Source of the DNA: an uncultured Nitrososphaerales archaeon | GTDB lineage: Archaea > Thermoproteota > Nitrososphaeria > Nitrososphaerales > Nitrososphaeraceae | Assembly (NCBI GenBank): GCA_963695855.1 | Contig: CAVOHZ010000010.1 | Span: 672,001 to 736,000, forward strand | Direction: 5' to 3' | DNA length: 64,000 nt | Shown here: positions 2,746 to 12,667 of the stretch, piece after piece | How the letters are laid out: each line of letters starts with the position of its first letter | Numbering within the stretch: the stretch's first letter is position 1 | Made by a program: the position numbers and the translations under genes | Notes under the pieces: generated by a model | Database searches by the model: none | What the model saw: the letters and a program-made list of their open reading frames with translations, nothing else | Told to the model about the DNA's origin: nothing

Positions 2746-3057
2746 TACAATTTTTCTTGTCTTTTTTAAACGTTGATGAATATTTTTAATAAATTGTGAG
2801 TAAAAAAATAATTATAGATCTTTGATAATTTGTTTATCAGTTCATTTATAATTTTATTTCATCAATTTTATTCTTTAGTATCTCAAAAGATGTGCAAGTT
2901 GATTTTGCCAATCATGCAGATTTAAAAGTATATTGAATCTATTCCTTTTGAATTATTGTATCTTCAAAATGCTGTAGACAGTGTATATAAAAATCTGTTA
3001 ATAAAGTAATGAAATACATATTTATTGAATTGTCTATTTATTTTATATTGTCAATTT

Positions 3058-3996
3058 ATGACTAGGAAAAATCATTTTTTTGGAAAAGATATTGTATCAA
3101 TCAAAGATTTTTCTAGGGAAGATCTGGAATTTATTTTTCAAGCGACTGACATAATTAATAAATCAGATCCTGATGAAAAAACCGAATTAGGTAAAGGTAG
3201 AACTTTAGGTTACATTTTTTATGAACCCAGTACTAGAACAAGGATGAGTTTTGAAGCAGCGATGGCATCCCTTGGCGGTAGCTCGATTGGGATTTTTGAT
3301 TCTAAATTTTCATCTATTGAAAAAGGTGAAAGTCTAGCTGATACTGTAAGAATAATGGATTTATATTCAGATATAATAATTTTAAGACATCCTAGAGACG
3401 GTTCAAGCAGATATGCAGCGGAGCTTTCTAATAATCCCATAATCAATGCCGGAAGTGGAAGCGAAGAACATCCAACACAGGCAATGCTTGATTTATACAC
3501 CATAAAAAAAGAAAAAGGAAAGATAGATGATCTAACTATTGGAATAGTAGGTGACTTGAAATACGGCAGAACAGTATACTCGTTGTTATATGGATTACAA
3601 AATTATAGAGTAAATATTTACCTTGTCTCGCCTCCAACACTGAACATAAGAAATGAATCAATTTATGAAATTCAGAACAAGATAAAAATAAAACAAGAAA
3701 ATTATTTAAATGACGTGATTACTAAACTGGATGTTTTATATGTTACTAGAATACAGAAAGAAAGGTTTCCAGATGTTCAAGAATATGAAAAAGTTAAGGG
3801 CACTTATAGAATTGATGAAAAAATCTTGAATACCACAAAGGCAGATTTGTGCATAATGCATCCATTGCCAAGATTCGATGAAATATCTCATTCGATCGAT
3901 GTGTCTCCAAAAGCAATCTATTTCAAACAGGCTGCATATGGTAAAGAGTTAAGAGCAGCGTTGTTAGCAGTCATATTAAATGAAAATCCCTTTTAG
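3058..3996 (+). CDS. pyrB: Aspartate carbamoyltransferase catalytic subunit
   Basis: FYEPSTRTRMSFE, HPTQAMLD, GDLKYGRTV, TRIQKERF and MHPLPR motifs. Confidence 0.97.
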   Translation: MTRKNHFFGKDIVSIKDFSREDLEFIFQATDIINKSDPDEKTELGKGRTLGYIFYEPSTRTRMSFEAAMASLGGSSIGIFDSKFSSIEKGESLADTVRIMDLYSDIIILRHPRDGSSRYAAELSNNPIINAGSGSEEHPTQAMLDLYTIKKEKGKIDDLTIGIVGDLKYGRTVYSLLYGLQNYRVNIYLVSPPTLNIRNESIYEIQNKIKIKQENYLNDVITKLDVLYVTRIQKERFPDVQEYEKVKGTYRIDEKILNTTKADLCIMHPLPRFDEISHSIDVSPKAIYFKQAAYGKELRAALLAVILNENPF

Positions 3997-4179
3997 AATT
4001 AGATTATACCAATTACGATAGGTATTCTGACATTATTTTACTGTTAGGTAATATATTTGGTCACAATAGCTATTAGCTGATATCATTAACATGATGGATC
4101 AAATTGACTACTATTTGCACTATATCAAAAACAAAATTTGAAAAAATATACAGATCTGAACACGATACTAATGTAAAGG

Positions 4180-5190
4180 AAAGAACTCCACTTGTTGTAA
4201 AATATGATAAATAGATTCCTGCAGAGGTAAGTATGAGATCTTCACAGAAGTATAACATGGTTCTTATTGTTTGAAAAGATGCCATGAAGAAGGTATAGAA
4301 GAATGATTAAAATTTATGTAAAAGTGTGGCAGACTAGCAGAATTACGTGAAATGATTATCCAAGATAAAAATTGAAAATCCTCTAGCCAACATGTTACAA
4401 ATCTAATTGTCAAAACGAGGTAAATTAGATATCCTCGCATATACCGTTTGTTTCACAGTTTGGGATTTGAACAGAAGTGCCAAAAAAAGTACTTCAAACA
4501 CTGCATCTAAAAAAAGAGAACGAATGTTTTATAAAATAAGATAAAGATATACAGCAATAATATCCAAAACTGATTCATATTAGTATCTATTGATGAATCG
4601 TTAATCTTCATTATCTTTCTTGTAAGAAGAATCTGATAAAATATGATAAACAACTAATTGTAAGAGATACTTGGTCCCATCAAAAGTCAGTCTTATCGTA
4701 TACCAACAGTTTGAAAGGAGACCAGCTGTTTAGACAATACAACTAGTTTGATGTCAACACCTTTTTAGATTATCTAAAACAGATTCAGAGGAAATTTCCA
4801 AAATGTTATCTCTTTTTGGATAAAACAAAACAACATCGTTACAGATCAAAAAAGGACTGAAATATTTTGATAAACATTCAAAGATTTTGATTCATATAAG
4901 TCAGGCCGTCATCATGAATATCATCACATCATCTTTCCAAACTTTATGTCTAGATATTCAAACATCTAGTTATTTTAGTAGAATGATACGACATCAACAA
5001 GACATCTGACTTATAAGCCAACAGCGTCTCCTGAATTCACTATACTCGAGGTAACGCGAAATACATAAAAAATGGTGTTCCTGTTTTAAATTATTACTGA
5101 TTCTTTATAGGTTTTAATAGTAAAATATCCAAATATTTCAGAACAAAAAGATTTAGCCTGCATATGATAAACTACCCGTTTCAAGATCCA
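4180..5190 (+). mobile_element. Heavily decayed IS630-family transposase relic; boundaries approximate
   Basis: Frameshifted fragments FLDYLKQIQRKFPKCYLFLDK (4762-4824), SPEF (~5028) and KYFRTKRFSL (5131-5160) resemble the IS630 element at 55.8 kb. Confidence 0.7.
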
Positions 5191-5286
5191 GATAACATAT
5201 ATTAAGCGGTATAGTTTATAGAATGAAACAATTTTATGATTTTTTAATTATAATACATAAAAATTTGGAAAATGAGTAATTGTGTG

Positions 5287-7986
5287 TTATCCAGATACGC
5301 AACTGCTAAATCCGCATTCTATGCACACATTACATCCCTCAGTGATAATGAGTTTTGATTTACAAGATGGACATAGCTCACTTTCGTCTATTTCCATCAT
5401 TGTTTTTTGAATTAATTCCACATTCTTGTTAAAATTTGAAGTTATCAAAACATCTCGTTCTTCTTTTTTCACGTTATCAAATATTTTACTTAGATATTGA
5501 ACTATATATGGCTCTTTTATATGGGAATGAATATAATTAGTAACATAATCACTTGGTTTTACAATGAAAGATTTTTCAAATGTATTTGTTCCTGGAATAT
5601 GTAAAACCTGTTCATTTCGTGAGCCATCTCTATATACAGTAACACCCTTTAATCCCAATTCATGAGAAAGTAGATATGAAGATTTTACATCTTCCACTGT
5701 GACGTCTCCAGGCATATTTATTGTTTTTGCAATAGCATTACTTATCCATTTTTGCCATATTGACTGTGCCATGATATGATCTGTCCAATGAATATCTATT
5801 GCTGTTGTAAATATAGATTGTATCCATTTAGGAATTTCATCAAGACCTCTAACAGAGCCATAATTATTTGCTATTTTTGTTAATATTTCATCATTATAAA
5901 GACCATTTTCTTTTAATATATTTTCAAATATTTTATTAGTATAGAAAAATCTTCCAACAGTAACACGTTTTTCAAAAACCAATGCAAAAACAGGTTCAAC
6001 ACCGTTAGAACAATCTGCTATCATGGATAATGTACCGGTTGGAGCGATTGTAGTAGTCCAAGAATTACGTATTCCAAATTTTCGGATTTTCTCGGTTAAA
6101 GATTCCCAATCATAAGCGTGTTGTTCTTTTGGTATTTCATAACACCCGGATACAGGTATTTTTCCATTCACATAACCAGTTTCTTTGAACAATGGAAAAG
6201 GTCCTCTAGATTTAGCAACAGCAACACTTTCTTCCATGCTATAATAGGTTAATGTTTCAGCTAGTTTATTCATAAATTCATAACCTTCTGTCGATGTGTA
6301 CGGAATACGTAACAAAAACAATAGATTTGCTATTCCCATTATTCCCAATCCTATTCTTCTCGTAAGTTTAGTATTGTAATCGATTTCTTCTATTGGATAT
6401 TTGTTCACATCTATAACATTATCAAGAAGTCGCGATGACAAACGTATGGCTTGCTCATATCTATGCCAATCAAATTCATACATACCATCTGCCTTTCTTT
6501 TAACAAAATTTGCGAGATTTATAGATCCTAAATTACAGGATTCGTAAGGATATAAAGATTGTTCGCCACATGGATTGGTAGCCCTCAATGGACCATTTTT
6601 AGCTTTGAGGCATGGATTGTATTTATTAATATTGTCAAAAAATATTACACCGGGTTCGGCACTTTTCCATGCACTTAAAGATATAAGATCTATCAATTGA
6701 TGCGAATCTATCTGTTTTACGGGTTCGTGAGTCCTTGGATTTTTGAGTGTAAATTTATTGTTATTTTTATTTATCAAAGAATTCCAGAAATCATCCCATA
6801 GTCCTACACTTACATTAAAGTTTTCAAATACACCTGATTTCGTCTTAGCAGTAATGAATTTTTCAATATCAGGATGCCAAGCTTCCAATATCCCCATGTT
6901 TGCACCCCGTCTTTTACCTCCCTGCTTTACAACATCAGTAATGGTATCAATGATTCTCATAAATGATGCAGGTCCTGATGCAACCCCCGATGTAGATGCA
7001 ACTATGTCACCTTCAGGCCTAAGATCCGAATAATTTATTCCCACTCCACCTCCAGATTTAAAAATCATGGCTGCATCAGAAGATGTTTTCATGATCAGAC
7101 CCATATCATCAGGTATATCCAGGACAAAGCATGCTGAAAGTTGACCTAATCTTGCTCCAGCATTCATTAATGTAGGTGTGTTGGGAAGAAAATCTTTTGA
7201 CACCATTAATTCAAAATATTCTTTGATTTTGTCTTCAAAATATCTAAATTTCCCTTGTACAATTAATTTTAATATTTCCTTAAATGATAATTTCATTTGC
7301 CCTCTGGAGGATAATTGAACAAACAAACGTATCAGAGATTCAAAATGAAATTTATTAAGATAATATTCACCTATTTTCAATTTCAGATCGAACTCGTTTA
7401 TTTTATCATAGTAATTGGTTGCTTCTTCAACATCCTGATTGTATCCTCCAGCCAAATTGAAAATAAGAGGATCATGTAATATATCAGCAATAGAGACAAG
7501 AATCGCAACTCTTTCGAACATCTTCTTGGGTCCTTCAATAATCTCATTATTATCATCACGCAATAGATAACGAGATGATAAAACACGTAAAGAATTGATA
7601 TCAAAAGACTTGTCAACTTCATCCAAATCCTTTTTATTAAGAATTTTTATTTTATCTTCTCTTAGTTTTCTTCTTTCATGCCTATAGAGAATATAAGACT
7701 TCGCAGTATCTGCAAGACCATCTTCTATTAGAATTGATTCAACTATATCCTGAACATCTTCAACGCTTGGGATTAAGCCCTTTTCAAATGAATTCCTAGT
7801 GATCTTTTCTAATACCTTATGACTCAATGTTTCAGCTAGTTTAAATTCTGGTTTACCAGTTGCAACTAATGCCTTGTAAATAGCATGTGATATTTTTGCT
7901 TCATCAAAATTAACAACTCTACCATCTCGTTTTTTTATTTGAAAAATAGAATTATTTTTTGGTTTGTCTACTTCAGATACTCCCAT
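5287..7986 (-). CDS. nrdJ: Adenosylcobalamin-dependent (class II) ribonucleotide reductase with N-terminal ATP cone
   Basis: IKKRDGRVVNFD ATP cone, PNTPTLMNAG, LSACF, TNPCGEQ, CNLGSINL, TIAPTGT and C-terminal Cys pairs; ATG 7986 follows a GGCGAG SD-like site. Confidence 0.95.
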   Translation of the reverse strand: MGVSEVDKPKNNSIFQIKKRDGRVVNFDEAKISHAIYKALVATGKPEFKLAETLSHKVLEKITRNSFEKGLIPSVEDVQDIVESILIEDGLADTAKSYILYRHERRKLREDKIKILNKKDLDEVDKSFDINSLRVLSSRYLLRDDNNEIIEGPKKMFERVAILVSIADILHDPLIFNLAGGYNQDVEEATNYYDKINEFDLKLKIGEYYLNKFHFESLIRLFVQLSSRGQMKLSFKEILKLIVQGKFRYFEDKIKEYFELMVSKDFLPNTPTLMNAGARLGQLSACFVLDIPDDMGLIMKTSSDAAMIFKSGGGVGINYSDLRPEGDIVASTSGVASGPASFMRIIDTITDVVKQGGKRRGANMGILEAWHPDIEKFITAKTKSGVFENFNVSVGLWDDFWNSLINKNNNKFTLKNPRTHEPVKQIDSHQLIDLISLSAWKSAEPGVIFFDNINKYNPCLKAKNGPLRATNPCGEQSLYPYESCNLGSINLANFVKRKADGMYEFDWHRYEQAIRLSSRLLDNVIDVNKYPIEEIDYNTKLTRRIGLGIMGIANLLFLLRIPYTSTEGYEFMNKLAETLTYYSMEESVAVAKSRGPFPLFKETGYVNGKIPVSGCYEIPKEQHAYDWESLTEKIRKFGIRNSWTTTIAPTGTLSMIADCSNGVEPVFALVFEKRVTVGRFFYTNKIFENILKENGLYNDEILTKIANNYGSVRGLDEIPKWIQSIFTTAIDIHWTDHIMAQSIWQKWISNAIAKTINMPGDVTVEDVKSSYLLSHELGLKGVTVYRDGSRNEQVLHIPGTNTFEKSFIVKPSDYVTNYIHSHIKEPYIVQYLSKIFDNVKKEERDVLITSNFNKNVELIQKTMMEIDESELCPSCKSKLIITEGCNVCIECGFSSCVSG

Positions 7987-8110
7987 ACAGCTCGCCTTCC
8001 AATTTTTTAACAATCATCATTATTTATAAGAATTGTGAATTGAAAATACCAATAAAAATATTATATCATGGGGTTAGATACAATTTTTAAATGCTAGATT
8101 TTGGGTTATT

Positions 8111-8137
8111 TATCGATCTAAATCATATAGGTCGATA
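8111..8137. promoter_or_regulatory. Imperfect inverted repeat upstream of nrdJ (candidate operator or terminator)
   Basis: TATCGATCTA-N7-TAGGTCGATA, arms match 9/10; TATA-like TTATAAAT on the minus strand at 8022-8029. Confidence 0.35.
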
Positions 8138-8161
8138 GCTAGATTCTACAGTTATTTGTTA

Positions 8162-10303
8162 TTATATAGATATTAATGAAATTTTATGAGAACCACAATA
8201 TTCACAAATTCTATTATTAGTACATGGGGATCGTTTTCCACAAATATTGCATATGGTCAACCTAAAGGTCATCCGAACAAAAGGGAGATCGAGTGATGAT
8301 TCAATTAACGTTCTAACCTCTTTATCGGTAGAAATATTTTCAATATCGAGATCAATAGAAAGATTTCCTTTCAGAATATTTTCTACAGCACAGTAATGAT
8401 CACATACTGATTTCAAAGAAAGATTATTTGATAGGACATCTGTACCTTTAACTTGAAAACCTTGTGAATAAAGCTCATGTTTATCGTTAAATGAATTGTC
8501 GGAAATTGCAATAGATTTACCGTATTTCTCATTGTCTAGACTCTTGAATCGATTTGAACTTTCATCTTTTAATATAGCTATCCCTAGACTTGAATTTGAT
8601 GATTCTTTAGCCTGTTCACTTATTATATCTACAGCCGTCTGTAGAACTTTACAAACAATATTTTCACATTCGTTTCCAGATTTGTAACCTAAAATGTTAT
8701 AAATTGATTCATTAATTCCAACTAAATTTATCATAGCATCTATCTTACCGAGTTGGAGATTTGAAGTAATTTTTGCTAGGAGTGGTGTAGTTCCCTTTTG
8801 TATATGCTCGGATATATTACTCACACGCTGATAGATGACAGATATTAAAGGTTTAAGCAATAACGCAAGTCTTGCTCTAAAATATGTCTCATCTCTATTT
8901 GATTGATATGCTATTCGTGGGAGATTTATTGACAACGATTGAAGTGTTACTACCGTAGTTTTTACGGAAGGATGAACTGGTTTGCAAAGGCCGTACCTTC
9001 CCCGTATTTTTTGTTGAGAAAATGAGATAATTCCACCAAGTCTAGAAATCTTTGCAATTTTATCAGTGTATTTGTAAATGGTGTTTCGGTCTTCACAGAC
9101 AAGAGACAAACCAATATTGGGGATAGGAGTATTTACTGTGTACCTGTAGTATCCATCAATTACGATATCTATCAGGAAGGAATTAGAGTCATCTAGATTG
9201 ATAGGCAATGTGATGTGAGGGGAAAATGAGGAAACAGATGATATCGAAGATGAAAGAAAAAGGATTTTAGAAAATTTATTAACAAGGTTTTCGTCAGTCT
9301 GAGCATATTTCGCAAGAAACTCGATGAGTCCTTCTAAAACCACTTCACGAGAAACCTCTCTAGTTAAAAGAGAGAGTAACAAAGGAATAATTGAATCATA
9401 ATCATGTGCATTACATAAGGAGGTTATCTTTGAAATCCCTAGATACTTCCCTTTAATATCAGAAAGACTATCTACTACAGAATTTAGATTGATGAAAATT
9501 GTATCAGGAAGTAAATTCCAGAATCCGCTCTTTCCAATATTAATTTCACCCATCAAATGCATGTCTACGATATCTTTTGGGAGAGAATTATTAAGCAGAT
9601 ATTCAGTAAAAATTGAAGATGACGTTTTTATGAAAAGATCAGGAATTTCTACATTGGACCTTGTATCATTAATAATATTTATCAAATCTATTGGGGGTAT
9701 TCCTAATCTTGCAAGTTTATTCCTATATTCATCATATCCATGATCTACTAGCACTGAATTGGTAGTTTCCCTTATTAGTGATGATGTAAGATAAGAGGTT
9801 TGAATTTTGTAGATCTTATTCTCCACTTCCTCCGTAATCTTATTTGCAAGTTCCAAAGGCATATTGGCCTCACGTACTAAAGACTGAATGATTTTATTAG
9901 AATCAAATTCTTCTATCGAAGGTTTGGTAGTCCTAACATACAACTTGCCGCTTTCTATTATCGATCTTTCCTCTATTTGACGAGCGAGACTTAAAACTAA
10001 TTTACCTAGATTAGTTATAGTATATCTCCTTTCTGCCTTGTTAAGAGACACTAAAGATTGTCTGAGTAATTTTCTTAGATGATAAGCAAATTTCCCAGAT
10101 TCTTTCTTTGATTTAAATCCTGCTAATGATTTTAATTCAGAATAGGTTAATGGTCCCTTAGAATTTAAAATTCTGAGAATATCAATACGATTGGGACTAG
10201 CCATGACTGAAAAAATCATTCTTACACGTCTTGAAGCTGACTCTAAAATTCCACCACGTTTCAAACTAGTCCTATTTGTGGTTTGGTATTGTACTCGCTC
10301 CAT
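8162..10303 (-). CDS. ArsR-type winged HTH + ATP cone + degenerate class III RNR (NrdD-like) fusion
   Basis: N-terminal NRIDILRIL...YSELK...FAYHLRKL...YTITNLG; ATP cone YVRTT..IEEFDSNKI; NrdD-like HLMGEINI and SINLPRIA; terminal CxxC..CxxC with no following RxxGY. Confidence 0.8.
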   Translation of the reverse strand: MERVQYQTTNRTSLKRGGILESASRRVRMIFSVMASPNRIDILRILNSKGPLTYSELKSLAGFKSKKESGKFAYHLRKLLRQSLVSLNKAERRYTITNLGKLVLSLARQIEERSIIESGKLYVRTTKPSIEEFDSNKIIQSLVREANMPLELANKITEEVENKIYKIQTSYLTSSLIRETTNSVLVDHGYDEYRNKLARLGIPPIDLINIINDTRSNVEIPDLFIKTSSSIFTEYLLNNSLPKDIVDMHLMGEINIGKSGFWNLLPDTIFINLNSVVDSLSDIKGKYLGISKITSLCNAHDYDSIIPLLLSLLTREVSREVVLEGLIEFLAKYAQTDENLVNKFSKILFLSSSISSVSSFSPHITLPINLDDSNSFLIDIVIDGYYRYTVNTPIPNIGLSLVCEDRNTIYKYTDKIAKISRLGGIISFSQQKIRGRYGLCKPVHPSVKTTVVTLQSLSINLPRIAYQSNRDETYFRARLALLLKPLISVIYQRVSNISEHIQKGTTPLLAKITSNLQLGKIDAMINLVGINESIYNILGYKSGNECENIVCKVLQTAVDIISEQAKESSNSSLGIAILKDESSNRFKSLDNEKYGKSIAISDNSFNDKHELYSQGFQVKGTDVLSNNLSLKSVCDHYCAVENILKGNLSIDLDIENISTDKEVRTLIESSLDLPFVRMTFRLTICNICGKRSPCTNNRICEYCGSHKISLISI

Positions 10304-10410
10304 TGCACCCGTTATAATTAACAAGTAATTAAAACTACTTTGTAAAGTTTTTTTTACAAATAATATAATGTATTGTAATTAACCAATTGAACAAATAAAA
10401 TTAATAATTG

Positions 10411-11019
10411 TTATATCAGAACTGGTTGACCTTCATGGAACTCATTTTCTTGTGCCTTGTAAATTCGTTTCTTATGTATATGACTAGGTACTTCCGGAAG
10501 CTTGTTTTTGGTATCCTCTTCCATTAAGGATTGTACTTCATTAAGAATGTCCAATGCCTCAGAGTTTACAGGAAAGTGAATAGTATCTGACTGTAAGTTT
10601 AGGCTGGTATTAACCAAAACATCATCAGTTAACGATGACATTTCTGAGAAAAGTAGTTTTGCTTGTGGAACTGTATCAGCTATATCTATCTGAACTTCTT
10701 TTATTGTATTAATCATTGGATTTATTGTATCTAAAATTCCAGCAAATTCGGAAATAGTAGAAAATCTAATAACTGTTCCCTCCAGTGCTATTGACAATTT
10801 TTGTGTTATATTTTTTATTTTCCTAATATTTACCAATTCGCGAGCAATGACTTTAGCGTTACTAGTATCACCGTTCTTTACTTTAATTGCAACTTTAACA
10901 GATAATTCCCTATCAAGCGAGGCGAACCTTTTCTCAAGTATCCTCAGTTTAGCAAGCTGTGTATTAACAACGACGGTTGCATGAGCAAGTCTGTTTTGAA
11001 GCTGGGGATACTTTTCCAC
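10411..11019 (-). CDS. CdvB/ESCRT-III (Snf7 family) paralogue
   Basis: Helical hairpin AKVIARELVNIRK...SIALEGTVIRFST, plus EALDILNEV and LPEVP C-terminal elements. Confidence 0.75.
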   Translation of the reverse strand: MEKYPQLQNRLAHATVVVNTQLAKLRILEKRFASLDRELSVKVAIKVKNGDTSNAKVIARELVNIRKIKNITQKLSIALEGTVIRFSTISEFAGILDTINPMINTIKEVQIDIADTVPQAKLLFSEMSSLTDDVLVNTSLNLQSDTIHFPVNSEALDILNEVQSLMEEDTKNKLPEVPSHIHKKRIYKAQENEFHEGQPVLI

Positions 11020-11116
11020 AACATCGTATTAATTTTCAGGATGTTAACTTTAATGTTAACCAATGTAGACAAATTGATAAAGCATTATAAATTAACAAAA
11101 CAGCACATAGTTTAAT

Positions 11117-11503
11117 TCAGATTTTTTTAATTACTAGACCATGTTTTTCATCGAATCCAACTACCTTTACTTTTGAACCTATTGGTAAATCTGATGGAGA
11201 TTTAATCCCAGGAAGAAAACCAGACACTCTAATAGGAGCACTTTCAAGGGAGAATACTACCCAAGCATAACTCTCTACGTCGTCAAATCCTTCGGGAGGG
11301 ACTGCATGGATCGTGAAAGTAATTACTTTACCAATACCATCCAACTCTACTACATCAAACTTATTATTTTGACATTTAGTACAATAGACCATCGTTTCTA
11401 AAATAAGTGTATTACAATTTCTACAACTTCTAACTAAAATCTTGGAATTTTTTGCAGAAGATATGAATTTCTCTCTTAATGCAGAATTCAGTACATCTTT
11501 CAC
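11117..11503 (-). CDS. DUF35 Zn-ribbon/OB-fold acyl-CoA-binding protein (thiolase partner)
   Basis: CRNC...CTKC and GKVITFTIH..PPEGF; 9 bp downstream of the thiolase. Confidence 0.88.
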   Translation of the reverse strand: MKDVLNSALREKFISSAKNSKILVRSCRNCNTLILETMVYCTKCQNNKFDVVELDGIGKVITFTIHAVPPEGFDDVESYAWVVFSLESAPIRVSGFLPGIKSPSDLPIGSKVKVVGFDEKHGLVIKKI

Positions 11504-11512
11504 TTTACGCGC

Positions 11513-12667
11513 TTACACCTTTTTAAAAATATGAACTGCTGCACTAGCACCTGTAGCTCCAAAATTATGAGTAAGAGCTATTTTGGCATTCTTAATCGTT
11601 CTCTCTCCTGCCTTACCACTAAATTGGTCATATACTTCAACTATTTGTCCTATACCCGTTGCTCCAATTGGATGACCTTTGGACTTTAAACCCCCAGATG
11701 GGTTAATTGGAATTCTTCCTTGTCTTGATGTAGCACCATCCCTGATTTCTTTTACAGCTTTTCCCTTTTGAAAAAATCCTAAATCTTCAACATCTATTAT
11801 TTCCGCTATAGTAAAACAGTCATGAACTTCTGCAAAATCCACATCCGTGGGCGAAATATTTGCCATCTTGTATGCCTGATTTGCAGCAGCAACGGTACTT
11901 GGAATAGTGGTTATTTCTTCTCGTCCTTGGACTGCTGCTGGTGAACCTCCGCGACCAGATCCTATCACTTCTATATATTCTCTGCCACTTTTTTTTGCGA
12001 AATCTTCACTACAAACAATAACTGCTGATGCACCATCAGAAAAAGGACAGCAATCATAAAGTTTCAAGGGAGAAGCTACAACTGGAGAATTTAATACATC
12101 ATCTACTGTTATTCGCTTACGCATATGTGCCTTTGGATTCAATAATCCATTTTCATGATTTTTAACAGCCACAAGTGCCAGATCCTCTTCATTTGCTTTA
12201 AATTTAGTCATATAGGCTCTAGCAATGGACGCAAAAAGTCCAGGAAAGGAAGCACCATTGCCACCTTCATAAAAGAAATCAGAACAGTAAGAAAAGAGTG
12301 TCGTACTCTCTGTCGTTCCGGTGTGAGTAATTTTTTCCACTCCCAGAGCTAAAACACAATCATAAAAGCCAGCGGCAACATTGGCATATGCTTCTCTAAA
12401 CATCACAGACCCAGAACCACATGCAGATTCTATTGTAAGACCAGGAACATGAGATATACCAAGATTACTCATTATGACAGGAGCCATATGTACTTGTTTA
12501 TCAACAACACCGAAAACGTTGGAGATATACCCAGCCTCGATATCTTTTGGAGTAATTCCTGCTGATTCTATTGCATCTACTGAAGCGTTTAATGCTATTT
12601 CAATAATACTTTCATCTAATTTACCATATTTTGTACTACCTGCTCCTAAAATGCAGACTTTATTCAC
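11513..12667 (-). CDS. Acetyl-CoA acetyltransferase (archaeal SCP-x-type thiolase)
   Basis: ESACGSG, SDGASA, EVHDCFT and NPSGGLKSKGHPIGATG motifs. Confidence 0.93.
   Translation of the reverse strand: MNKVCILGAGSTKYGKLDESIIEIALNASVDAIESAGITPKDIEAGYISNVFGVVDKQVHMAPVIMSNLGISHVPGLTIESACGSGSVMFREAYANVAAGFYDCVLALGVEKITHTGTTESTTLFSYCSDFFYEGGNGASFPGLFASIARAYMTKFKANEEDLALVAVKNHENGLLNPKAHMRKRITVDDVLNSPVVASPLKLYDCCPFSDGASAVIVCSEDFAKKSGREYIEVIGSGRGGSPAAVQGREEITTIPSTVAAANQAYKMANISPTDVDFAEVHDCFTIAEIIDVEDLGFFQKGKAVKEIRDGATSRQGRIPINPSGGLKSKGHPIGATGIGQIVEVYDQFSGKAGERTIKNAKIALTHNFGATGASAAVHIFKKV

Follow-up and report, generated by a model that had tools for sequence, protein, structure and literature searches.

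In the 64,000-nucleotide stretch of DNA analyzed here (positions 672,001 to 736,000 of contig CAVOHZ010000010.1, assembly GCA_963695855.1, from an uncultured archaeon of the Nitrososphaeraceae; hereafter the window, counted from its first letter), a gene on the minus strand at 8162–10303 encodes a protein of 713 residues. The protein carries an ArsR-like winged helix-turn-helix (wHTH) domain and an ATP-cone in front of a degenerate barrel of NrdD, the anaerobic class III ribonucleotide reductase (RNR). Alignment and homolog counts support the conclusion that it is a pseudoenzyme derived from a class III RNR. On balance, we consider it probable that the protein works as a dimer that regulates the transcription of RNR and nucleotide-metabolism genes in response to nucleotides, NrdR-like in its action but outside the NrdR family; its DNA binding, nucleotide binding, target genes and sign of regulation are what we infer rather than observe.

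In the proposed mechanism, the degenerate NrdD barrel and the zinc ribbon that follows it would form a dimeric scaffold from which two N-terminal winged helices of the ArsR type contact DNA. The ATP-cone, placed between the scaffold and the wHTH, would sense the ATP/dATP pool, the function that it has in RNRs and NrdR. Bound nucleotide would then change the conformation or the oligomeric state of the protein and alter its binding to DNA. The outcome would be a tuning of transcription for nucleotide supply. The target would be nrdJ, the class II RNR gene immediately downstream, in this organism and a true nrdD in anaerobic relatives; further targets would probably include the gene's own promoter and possibly the pyr genes.

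Domain architecture

The protein is encoded by a single open reading frame (ORF) on the minus strand (8165–10303), followed by a stop codon at 8162–8164. Its start is the ATG at 10303–10301, which is kept together with its promoter block across the family; the ORF program had placed the start at a TTG seven codons before this conserved ATG. Translation, Pfam domains and a structural model agree on the layout of the product, all parts of which are read from the minus strand. The ArsR/SmtB-type wHTH (residues 25–118; 9950–10231) is defined by the HTH_20 and DUF7347 families and by structural matches, and the ATP-cone (residues 119–200; 9704–9949) by its Pfam family and near-invariant residues. 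The degenerate NrdD alpha/beta barrel (residues 201–674; 8282–9703) was delimited by Foldseek, by alignment to true NrdDs and by homolog counts. The C-terminal zinc ribbon (8165–8281), with C685, C688, C700 and C703, was recognized by the invariance of these Cys residues and by the end of the ORF, and no glycyl-radical loop follows it.

Four Pfam families were matched along the protein: DUF7347 at residues 30–104 (E 4.1e-10), HTH_20 at 34–85 (E 1.2e-7; 32 bits against a cut-off of 27), ATP-cone at 122–193 (36.5 bits against 25.8) and NRDD at 451–709 (59.9 bits against 26.2). The last match covers positions 276–534 of the 562 in the profile and so stops short of the profile end. Against the NCBIfam NrdD equivalog TIGR02487, the 713-residue protein scores 53.1 bits, and the cut-off is 326.35. 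The fusion of wHTH, ATP-cone and NrdD barrel in one ORF, which had been described beforehand from the DNA, was thus borne out by translation and Pfam, and the motifs named at that time (HLMGEINIGK at 249–258, SINLPRIA, and the four zinc Cys) are all present.

An AlphaFold2 (AF2) model based on 111 homologs reached a mean predicted local distance difference test score (pLDDT) of 90.2 and a predicted template modeling score (pTM) of 0.86. When Foldseek was run with the full model, the best matches were all class III RNRs, namely those of S. thermophilus, T. maritima, P. copri and phage T4 (E 2e-16 to 1e-10, TM 0.5–0.64); structure prediction, which had been proposed as a check, thus placed the full-length model closest to class III RNRs. 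A direct search of the PDB by protein sequence gave chance matches only. For a model of residues 1–200 (pLDDT 86.2), the top Foldseek match was the ATP-cone of NrdR, at a weak E of 1.4e-3. The same model matched the ArsR/SmtB proteins CzrA, CadC, HlyU and SmtB with TMt 0.70–0.75 and a root-mean-square deviation of 2.4–3 Å over about 95 residues, also at weak E values (4e-3 to 2e-2). In the alignment of the 111 homologs, G70, F72, Y74 and H75 of the recognition helix are near-invariant, and so are V123, R124, E131, F133, I138, R178, R194 and R199 of the cone.

Loss of class III reductase chemistry

The target was aligned with 21 wHTH-bearing homologs and four wHTH-less NrdD paralogs from genomes of the same phylum, and residue roles were assigned after two studies of NrdD (PMC11226230 and PMC4493059). 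Three of the four wHTH-less paralogs, all of them downstream neighbors, keep every NrdD hallmark: RPFCQ, IHIHD or LHIHD, KENANLQ, QCC, the zinc CxxC..CxxC and R(I/V)TGYY. The target departs from these true NrdDs at each hallmark except the zinc site.

The second mechanistic Cys of NrdD lies on beta-strand 1 and is given as Cys171 in PcNrdD and Cys125 in TmNrdD (PMC11226230 and PMC4493059). In the target, this column holds the Thr of "LPDTI" (LLPDTIF, 264–270), which aligns with the RPFCQ of true NrdDs; over the 111 homologs, the commonest residues are Thr (34), Ser (16) and Glu (15), and Cys is outside the ten commonest. The HxHD triphosphate motif is replaced as well, with N-I-G-K in the target where true NrdDs have H-I-H-D, and among the same homologs the second His is outside the eight commonest residues at its column. 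The NxN substrate flap, KENANLQ in true NrdDs, has no counterpart in the target. The finger loop is about 25 residues shorter than in true NrdDs; the Cys found in its region, C440 of "GLCK," is conserved in only 7 of 49 relatives, and none of the 111 homologs has CC in the finger-loop window.

At the C terminus, the zinc residues C685, C688, C700 and C703 are invariant in all 49 relatives, and the two CxxC motifs are kept by 79 of the 111 representatives. The protein ends 10 residues past C703, the last zinc Cys. The tails of the 40 wHTH-bearing homologs taken from the loci contain no RxxG[YF] motif, and RxxG[YFW] occurs within the last 70 residues of 5 of the 111 homologs, mostly out of register and in two cases after a zinc site. 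The three defects listed in the preliminary description, namely the missing glycyl-radical loop after the zinc site, PDT in place of the catalytic Cys and a doubtful finger-loop Cys, were each upheld, and so was its reading of the protein as a pseudoenzyme, with every catalytic feature tested lost both in the window and family-wide. Even among true NrdDs of the same phylum, one differs from that of T. maritima at the specificity-site position Gln161, so that sequence alone is no guide to retention of the specificity site in the target.

The remainder of the genome gives the same picture. The assembly is 99.87% complete, and this protein is its single NRDD match. The preliminary description had seen no gene for the NrdG activase in the window; the search was extended to the whole genome, where TIGR02495 and TIGR02491 gave no match over their cut-offs. 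The best NrdG candidate was rejected: the QueE model gives it 77.9 bits and the NrdG2 model 47.0, neither of which reaches the cut-off, and the ORFs that flank it resemble, as judged by eye, QueC and GTP cyclohydrolase I, which together make a queuosine-type cluster. NrdB was not found in the genome, and NrdR gave no match to TIGR00244 at E <= 0.01. The only working RNR visible in the genome is the class II enzyme encoded by nrdJ, and there is no true NrdD. The nrdJ gene (5287–7986, minus strand), the presumed target of the regulator, encodes an intact adenosylcobalamin-dependent class II RNR with its own ATP-cone, recognized by the Pfam ATP-cone, lgN and barrel families and by TIGR02504 (746.6 bits against a cut-off of 399.95); its ATG is at 7986–7984. 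A third ATP-cone protein is also encoded in the genome (G000:C10:894225-894434; L018 1459–2295, plus strand); it has 278 residues with an N-terminal cone, as a whole it has no NCBIfam match, and it would be an orphan sensor of nucleotides.

Homologs of the target come in three forms. Long forms of about 750 residues have a vestigial glycyl-radical tail, in which the Gly column holds Ala, Thr, Asn, Leu or Tyr, and Gly once. Target-like forms of about 700 residues end just past the zinc site. Short forms of about 530–660 residues have lost the zinc site too. The long forms could be taken to indicate a reductase or another radical enzyme with unconventional chemistry, for example a non-glycine "aminoacyl radical" enzyme of the kind described in PMC11528403, as several of them have Ala or Thr in the Gly column. 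Furthermore, T. maritima NrdD is active even though its crystal structure has no pre-positioned Cys (PMC4493059). However, the target has no tail at all past its zinc site; both radical Cys, the HxHD motif and the NxN flap are missing; and the Gly column of the long forms also holds Asn, Leu and Tyr. In addition, no activase over cut-off is present in the genome, and none of 125 ORFs that neighbor the homologs at distant loci belongs to a radical S-adenosylmethionine family at E <= 1e-5. A radical enzyme of this type is accordingly very improbable in our estimate.

One paralog deserves separate mention. In locus L057, the wHTH form is followed immediately downstream by a second, wHTH-less NrdD paralog (4176–6083, minus strand). 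This paralog still has the beta-1 Cys and "IHIHA," but its glycyl position holds Ala ("RSIAFY") and the finger-loop segment is missing. It may be either another pseudoenzyme or a candidate non-glycine radical enzyme like those treated in PMC11528403.

Conservation and predicted dimerization

Sequence identity to the target was compared domain by domain over 29 own-family loci and 19 sister-family loci. Mean identity is 0.97 in both families for the wHTH (25–118), and 0.83 (own family) and 0.75 (sister family) for the ATP-cone (119–200). It falls to 0.48 and 0.38 in the linker and first part of the barrel (201–290), to 0.36–0.44 and 0.26–0.37 in the rest of the barrel (291–660), and to 0.35 and 0.21 in the zinc ribbon (661–713). 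The 169 invariant positions lie mostly between residues 27 and 203. Thus, the wHTH and the cone are far more conserved than the barrel, which is the pattern expected of a DNA-binding, nucleotide-sensing protein in which the barrel is a scaffold.

When residues 215–713 were modeled in two copies, the homodimer scored 0.62, compared with 0.00 for the best control. Of 30 proteins solved as pairs, 20 attained this mark, as did 1 of 23 proteins solved as single chains. The dimer runs showed at least 81% contact agreement, with a partner pLDDT of at least 79. The predicted interface is formed by helices around 299–316 and 340–357, which align with the region of the alphaA/alphaB dimer helices of NrdD. 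The barrel is therefore predicted to retain an NrdD-like dimer interface, although solved NrdD dimers exist and the score may stem from resemblance to them instead of from binding.

Such an interface could in principle pair with a true NrdD, and the paralog adjoins an enzyme gene. Both observations would fit a different role, in which the protein is a non-DNA partner of a true RNR, the dead barrel binding NrdJ or NrdD to modulate or chaperone it and the wHTH being secondary. In contrast, the only RNR of this genome is of class II, with no true NrdD; conservation is lowest in the barrel and highest in the wHTH; and the protein persists at loci without an adjacent RNR gene. We regard a partner role as improbable. 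The conservation gradient agrees better with a transcription factor in which the barrel serves as scaffold.

Distribution and annotation of the family

The protein is present in 40 of the 41 genomes of its own family (a tally that includes one genome flagged as unpublished, G235), and in all 33 of the high-quality ones. It was likewise found in 26 of 26 sister-family genomes and in 145 of 201 genomes of the phylum; 102 of these 201 have a true NrdD that exceeds the TIGR02487 cut-off. The strongest NrdD match of every sister-family genome (26 of 26; E 1e-12 to 1e-21) is far weaker than the matches listed as over cut-off, which are at about E 1e-100 or better. In a number of genomes (G006, G039, G071, G143, G031 and others), true NrdD matches are split within frames of 1100–2800 residues, and these look like intein-bearing nrdD genes.

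A word-indexed protein search gave 3924 proteins at E <= 1e-3. The best 120 of these all have DUF7347, ATP-cone and NRDD, and 119 of them also HTH_20. An exhaustive search of representatives at 50% identity gave 882 matches at E <= 1e-3, of which 148 were at E <= 1e-30. A language-model look-up pointed to related clusters labeled Bathyarchaeota, Promethearchaeota (Asgard) and Nanobdellota; these clusters, which are leads only, may point to an archaea-wide system.

Where public names are given, they are "anaerobic ribonucleoside-triphosphate reductase," "ArsR family regulator" and "helix-turn-helix protein," for proteins from Nitrososphaeraceae, so that the mis-annotation as an anaerobic RNR foreseen in the preliminary description is in fact in use. 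As the gene is widely named an anaerobic RNR, names can wrongly suggest a capacity for anaerobic ribonucleotide reduction in obligate aerobes. Among the long forms, one wHTH-bearing pseudo-NrdD (G141:C16:22241-23842; L047 5131–7455) scores 325.6 bits against the TIGR02487 cut-off of 326.35, and automatic pipelines can easily call such a protein a working anaerobic RNR.

Gene neighborhood and the likely regulon

On the minus strand of the window, the order is a CdvB-like gene, the dead-NrdD gene, a spacer of 175 nucleotides (7987–8161), nrdJ, a 1.29-kb stretch and a convergent pyrB. The co-oriented position 175 bp upstream of an intact class II RNR, as given in the preliminary description, is correct. 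In the own family, the next gene downstream on the same strand is nrdJ in 16 of 29 loci, and 5 of the 29 are cut by contig ends within about 0.5 kb. The sister family has nrdJ downstream in 18 of 19 loci, and the remaining one is cut.

For a wider comparison, 20 loci from distant families of the phylum were inspected for neighbors within 2.6 kb, which gave the 125 neighbor ORFs mentioned above. A true nrdD is the next gene downstream on the same strand in 3 of the 20 (L043, L047 and L058), with a glutaredoxin gene in between in L047; the downstream gene is the degenerate nrdD paralog in one further locus (L057) and nrdJ in another (L042). PyrI was found at 8 of the 20 loci and the catalytic chain of a carbamoyltransferase at 9, pyrB and argF being indistinct in two of the latter. 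A UMP-kinase-like gene occurs in 3 and an HD/YfbR-like 5'-deoxynucleotidase gene in 2. In total, 13 of the 20 distant loci have a nucleotide-metabolism neighbor.

Two consequences follow for the scope of the proposed regulator. First, a regulator of nrdJ is too narrow a description, as the family is phylum-wide and stands beside true nrdD and pyrB/pyrI elsewhere, so that the likely regulon is nucleotide metabolism and not nrdJ alone. Second, the order in L043 (dead-NrdD gene, nrdD, pyrB on the opposite strand, pyrI) resembles the layout of the window with nrdD instead of nrdJ. This likeness suggests that a class II gene may have replaced the class III gene in place and that the regulator was kept.

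A bolder reading may also be put forward, which we hold to be possible but tentative. The protein would be an archaeal counterpart of NrdR, descended from a duplicated class III RNR gene that became joined to a winged helix, and would act as a master sensor of deoxynucleoside triphosphate (dNTP) supply that outlived its parent enzyme. Its activity-site cone would sense ATP/dATP, specificity-site remnants at the dimer interface might sense dNTP balance, and it would control RNR, pyrimidine-synthesis and dNTP-turnover genes. In aerobic ammonia oxidizers, nrdD would have given way to nrdJ at the same locus while the regulator stayed.

The other genes around the locus can be summarized briefly. 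The pyrB gene (aspartate carbamoyltransferase; 3025–3996, plus strand), convergent with nrdJ, scores 353.4 bits with TIGR00670 (cut-off 236.95); unlike in many distant loci, no pyrI adjoins it in the window. The 1.29 kb between pyrB and nrdJ (3997–5286) contains no ORF of more than 70 residues, and an Rfam scan of 3900–10500 gave nothing at E <= 0.1. The upstream neighbor is a CdvB-like ESCRT-III gene (10411–11019, minus strand), identified below model cut-offs; it forms part of a minus-strand series (10411–12667) that continues with a gene of the DUF35-type oligonucleotide/oligosaccharide-binding (OB) fold and a thiolase gene. Genes for thiolase/3-hydroxy-3-methylglutaryl-CoA (HMG-CoA) synthase or HMG-CoA reductase also lie upstream of the homologs in L043, L050 and L057, and this recurrence points to a very old conserved gene order.

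Promoters and the search for an operator

The conserved promoter block of the dead-NrdD gene (10304–10365, minus strand), defined by an alignment of 27 family loci, is a candidate auto-regulatory operator. Its consensus is atTaGT.AAaaA.aaTtTACAAaGtAgtTTTAATcA, followed after about 20 nucleotides by ATGGAAC. A TATA-like TTTTAAT at 10328–10334 lies about 28 nucleotides before the ATG, a position that presumably fits the TATA box of a leaderless or near-leaderless archaeal mRNA. Directly upstream of it and abutting it, a perfect 8-bp inverted repeat, TTTGTAAA-N6-TTTACAAA (10339–10360), is present in the window and in its own genus; other genera have one perfect half of the repeat and one imperfect half. 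The inverted repeat overlaps the position of the B recognition element (BRE) and is a weakly indicated candidate for an auto-regulatory operator. A search for its strict pattern, TTGTAA-N0-12-TTACAA, gave this promoter copy as the single match in the 64-kb window, where 0.2 would be expected, and 19 of 100 shuffles gave at least one.

The 175-nucleotide spacer upstream of nrdJ (7987–8161, minus strand) contains a TATA-like TTATAAAT at 8022–8029. A k-mer search of both families (k = 7, and k = 9 with one mismatch) returned only AT-rich words and an ambiguous "(G/C)TAGTTTTA," which overlaps the presumed BRE/TATA; these were not retained, and no regulon emerged from the search. A second candidate, GTGTCAA-N5-TTGACAC, upstream of nrdJ in some sister-family loci, was set aside in its strict form, being perfect in one locus only. 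Its relaxed form, GTGT(C/A)AA-N5-TTGA(C/G), is found about 60–110 nucleotides upstream of nrdJ in L025–L039, with a perfect copy in L035; this element, which is unlike the promoter repeat of the window, may be regarded as a candidate operator of nrdJ in the sister family.

Other repeated elements were seen in the sister-family loci. L021–L039 (for example, L028) have dense GATC repeats of the "TGATC(C/T)AAA" type 100–230 nucleotides before the homologous gene. Past the stop codon of the homolog, sister-family loci have paired "GATCA..TGATC" elements, and "TGATCAAAA," with one mismatch allowed, is present in all 19 of these loci.

In metatranscriptomes (four runs, three studies), contigs with 92–100% identity were found over both genes, with 24–28 of 30 bins covered per run. 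These contigs are consistent with expression of both genes, though contigs from RNA libraries prove neither transcription, strand, level nor co-transcription. Those over nrdJ end at 7977 and 7980 in two studies, which is a weak hint of a separate nrdJ transcript start. One contig (8028–8569) spans the stop codon of the dead-NrdD gene, and none of the pieces listed runs from the dead-NrdD gene into nrdJ.

Weighing local control against a broader role

Several observations weigh against a nucleotide-responsive regulator of RNR genes. In the protein itself, the NCBIfam ArsR/SmtB model reaches 23.7 bits, below its cut-off of 55, and the cone reads VRTT, with Val in place of the canonical Lys of "KR"; same-phylum true NrdDs have the same variant cone ("VRTS"), so the Val may be a lineage trait. 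The 97% identity of the wHTH exceeds the usual need of an operator, and another conserved partner could account for it. With a wHTH this similar (97%) in the two families, an operator common to both would be expected, and none was found. The strict inverted repeat is present in 3 of 28 family promoters, all in the own genus, and is absent from the nrdJ upstream regions (0 of 17 and 0 of 18). It has 26 copies in the genome, and the four that were inspected lie in or beside unrelated ORFs. No motif common to the dead-NrdD promoter and the nrdJ upstream region was found in either family. Among the loci, 8 of the 29 in the own family have no nrdJ within 2.8–7.3 kb downstream, and 7 of the 20 distant ones have no nucleotide-metabolism neighbor within 2.6 kb. 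Finally, the conserved gene order could be inherited rather than functional. The preliminary interpretation is supported in part: the synteny with nrdJ is present in many loci but not in these eight, and no operator shared between the gene's own promoter and that of nrdJ was found.

The main rival explanation starts from these points. The protein would bind DNA, but its main task would be other than RNR control (global, chromatin-like, cell-cycle or replication-linked); its adjacency to nrdJ would be inherited, and the cone and dead barrel would merely couple it to the energy or nucleotide state of the cell. The identity of the wHTH over two families is unusually strict for a local repressor, and the lack of an operator common with the nrdJ promoter and the loci away from nrdJ point in the same direction. 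So do the CdvB-like cell-division gene upstream, even if it is below model cut-offs, and the thiolase/HMG-CoA genes that recur upstream in distant loci and suggest an old gene order. However, the gene recurs beside two classes of RNR and beside pyrB/pyrI, UMP-kinase-like and deoxynucleotidase-like genes, with such neighbors in 13 of the 20 distant loci, and an RNR origin with the activity-site domain retained points to nucleotide metabolism. We consider the broader role rather unlikely and favor the nucleotide-responsive regulator of RNR and nucleotide-metabolism genes.

Comparison with known systems

Compared to NrdR, the protein shares several features. First, an ATP-cone is coupled to a DNA-binding domain. 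Second, the gene is linked to RNR genes. Third, by analogy, the expected logic would be the same, with the ATP/dATP state of the cone setting DNA binding, as reported for NrdR (PMC9110341). The NrdR cone is also the best, if weak, structural match noted above for the N-terminal model. There are also differences. The DNA-binding domain of NrdR is a zinc ribbon, whereas here it is an ArsR-type wHTH, and the protein is five times larger than NrdR and includes a dead NrdD barrel. As for the paired palindromic boxes that NrdR has before RNR operons, an inverted repeat is conserved in the gene's own promoter, and the searches upstream of nrdJ gave neither a shared copy nor a paired operator of this type. 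The protein is at most a functional analog of NrdR and not a member of its family. NrdR is described as rare in archaea (PMC9110341).

Compared to NrdD, the fold and the homology extend over the cone, the barrel and the zinc ribbon, and a dimer through equivalent helices is predicted. Same-phylum true NrdDs share the variant cone and adjoin the wHTH form in some genomes. In contrast to NrdD, the protein has an extra N-terminal wHTH, and it is missing the beta-1 Cys, the finger-loop Cys, HxHD, the NxN flap and the glycyl-radical loop, with no NrdG found in the genome.

With ArsR/SmtB regulators such as CzrA, CadC, SmtB and HlyU, the protein shares the wHTH fold, and dimeric action would be expected of it. 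Those regulators have metal sites within their wHTH dimer, whereas here the ATP-cone and the pseudoenzyme would be the sensing module. Furthermore, Pfam assigns the domain to DUF7347, and the NCBIfam subfamily model stays below its cut-off. Full-text literature searches, which did not cover most subscription journals, gave no description of a regulator with the wHTH/ATP-cone/NrdD-like architecture; nrdD and HTH are both mentioned in a Tn7 preprint, but its subject is unrelated.

Implications

The control of RNR and of dNTP supply in archaea is largely unknown, and this family provides a concrete and directly testable candidate. It is present in soil and marine ammonia oxidizers, which rank among the Earth's most abundant archaea, as well as in anaerobic relatives of these organisms. 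If the proposed function is true, the family would be a clear case of an enzyme that became a transcription factor with its allosteric sensor retained. The regulator would, moreover, have persisted after an RNR of another class took the place of its cognate enzyme.

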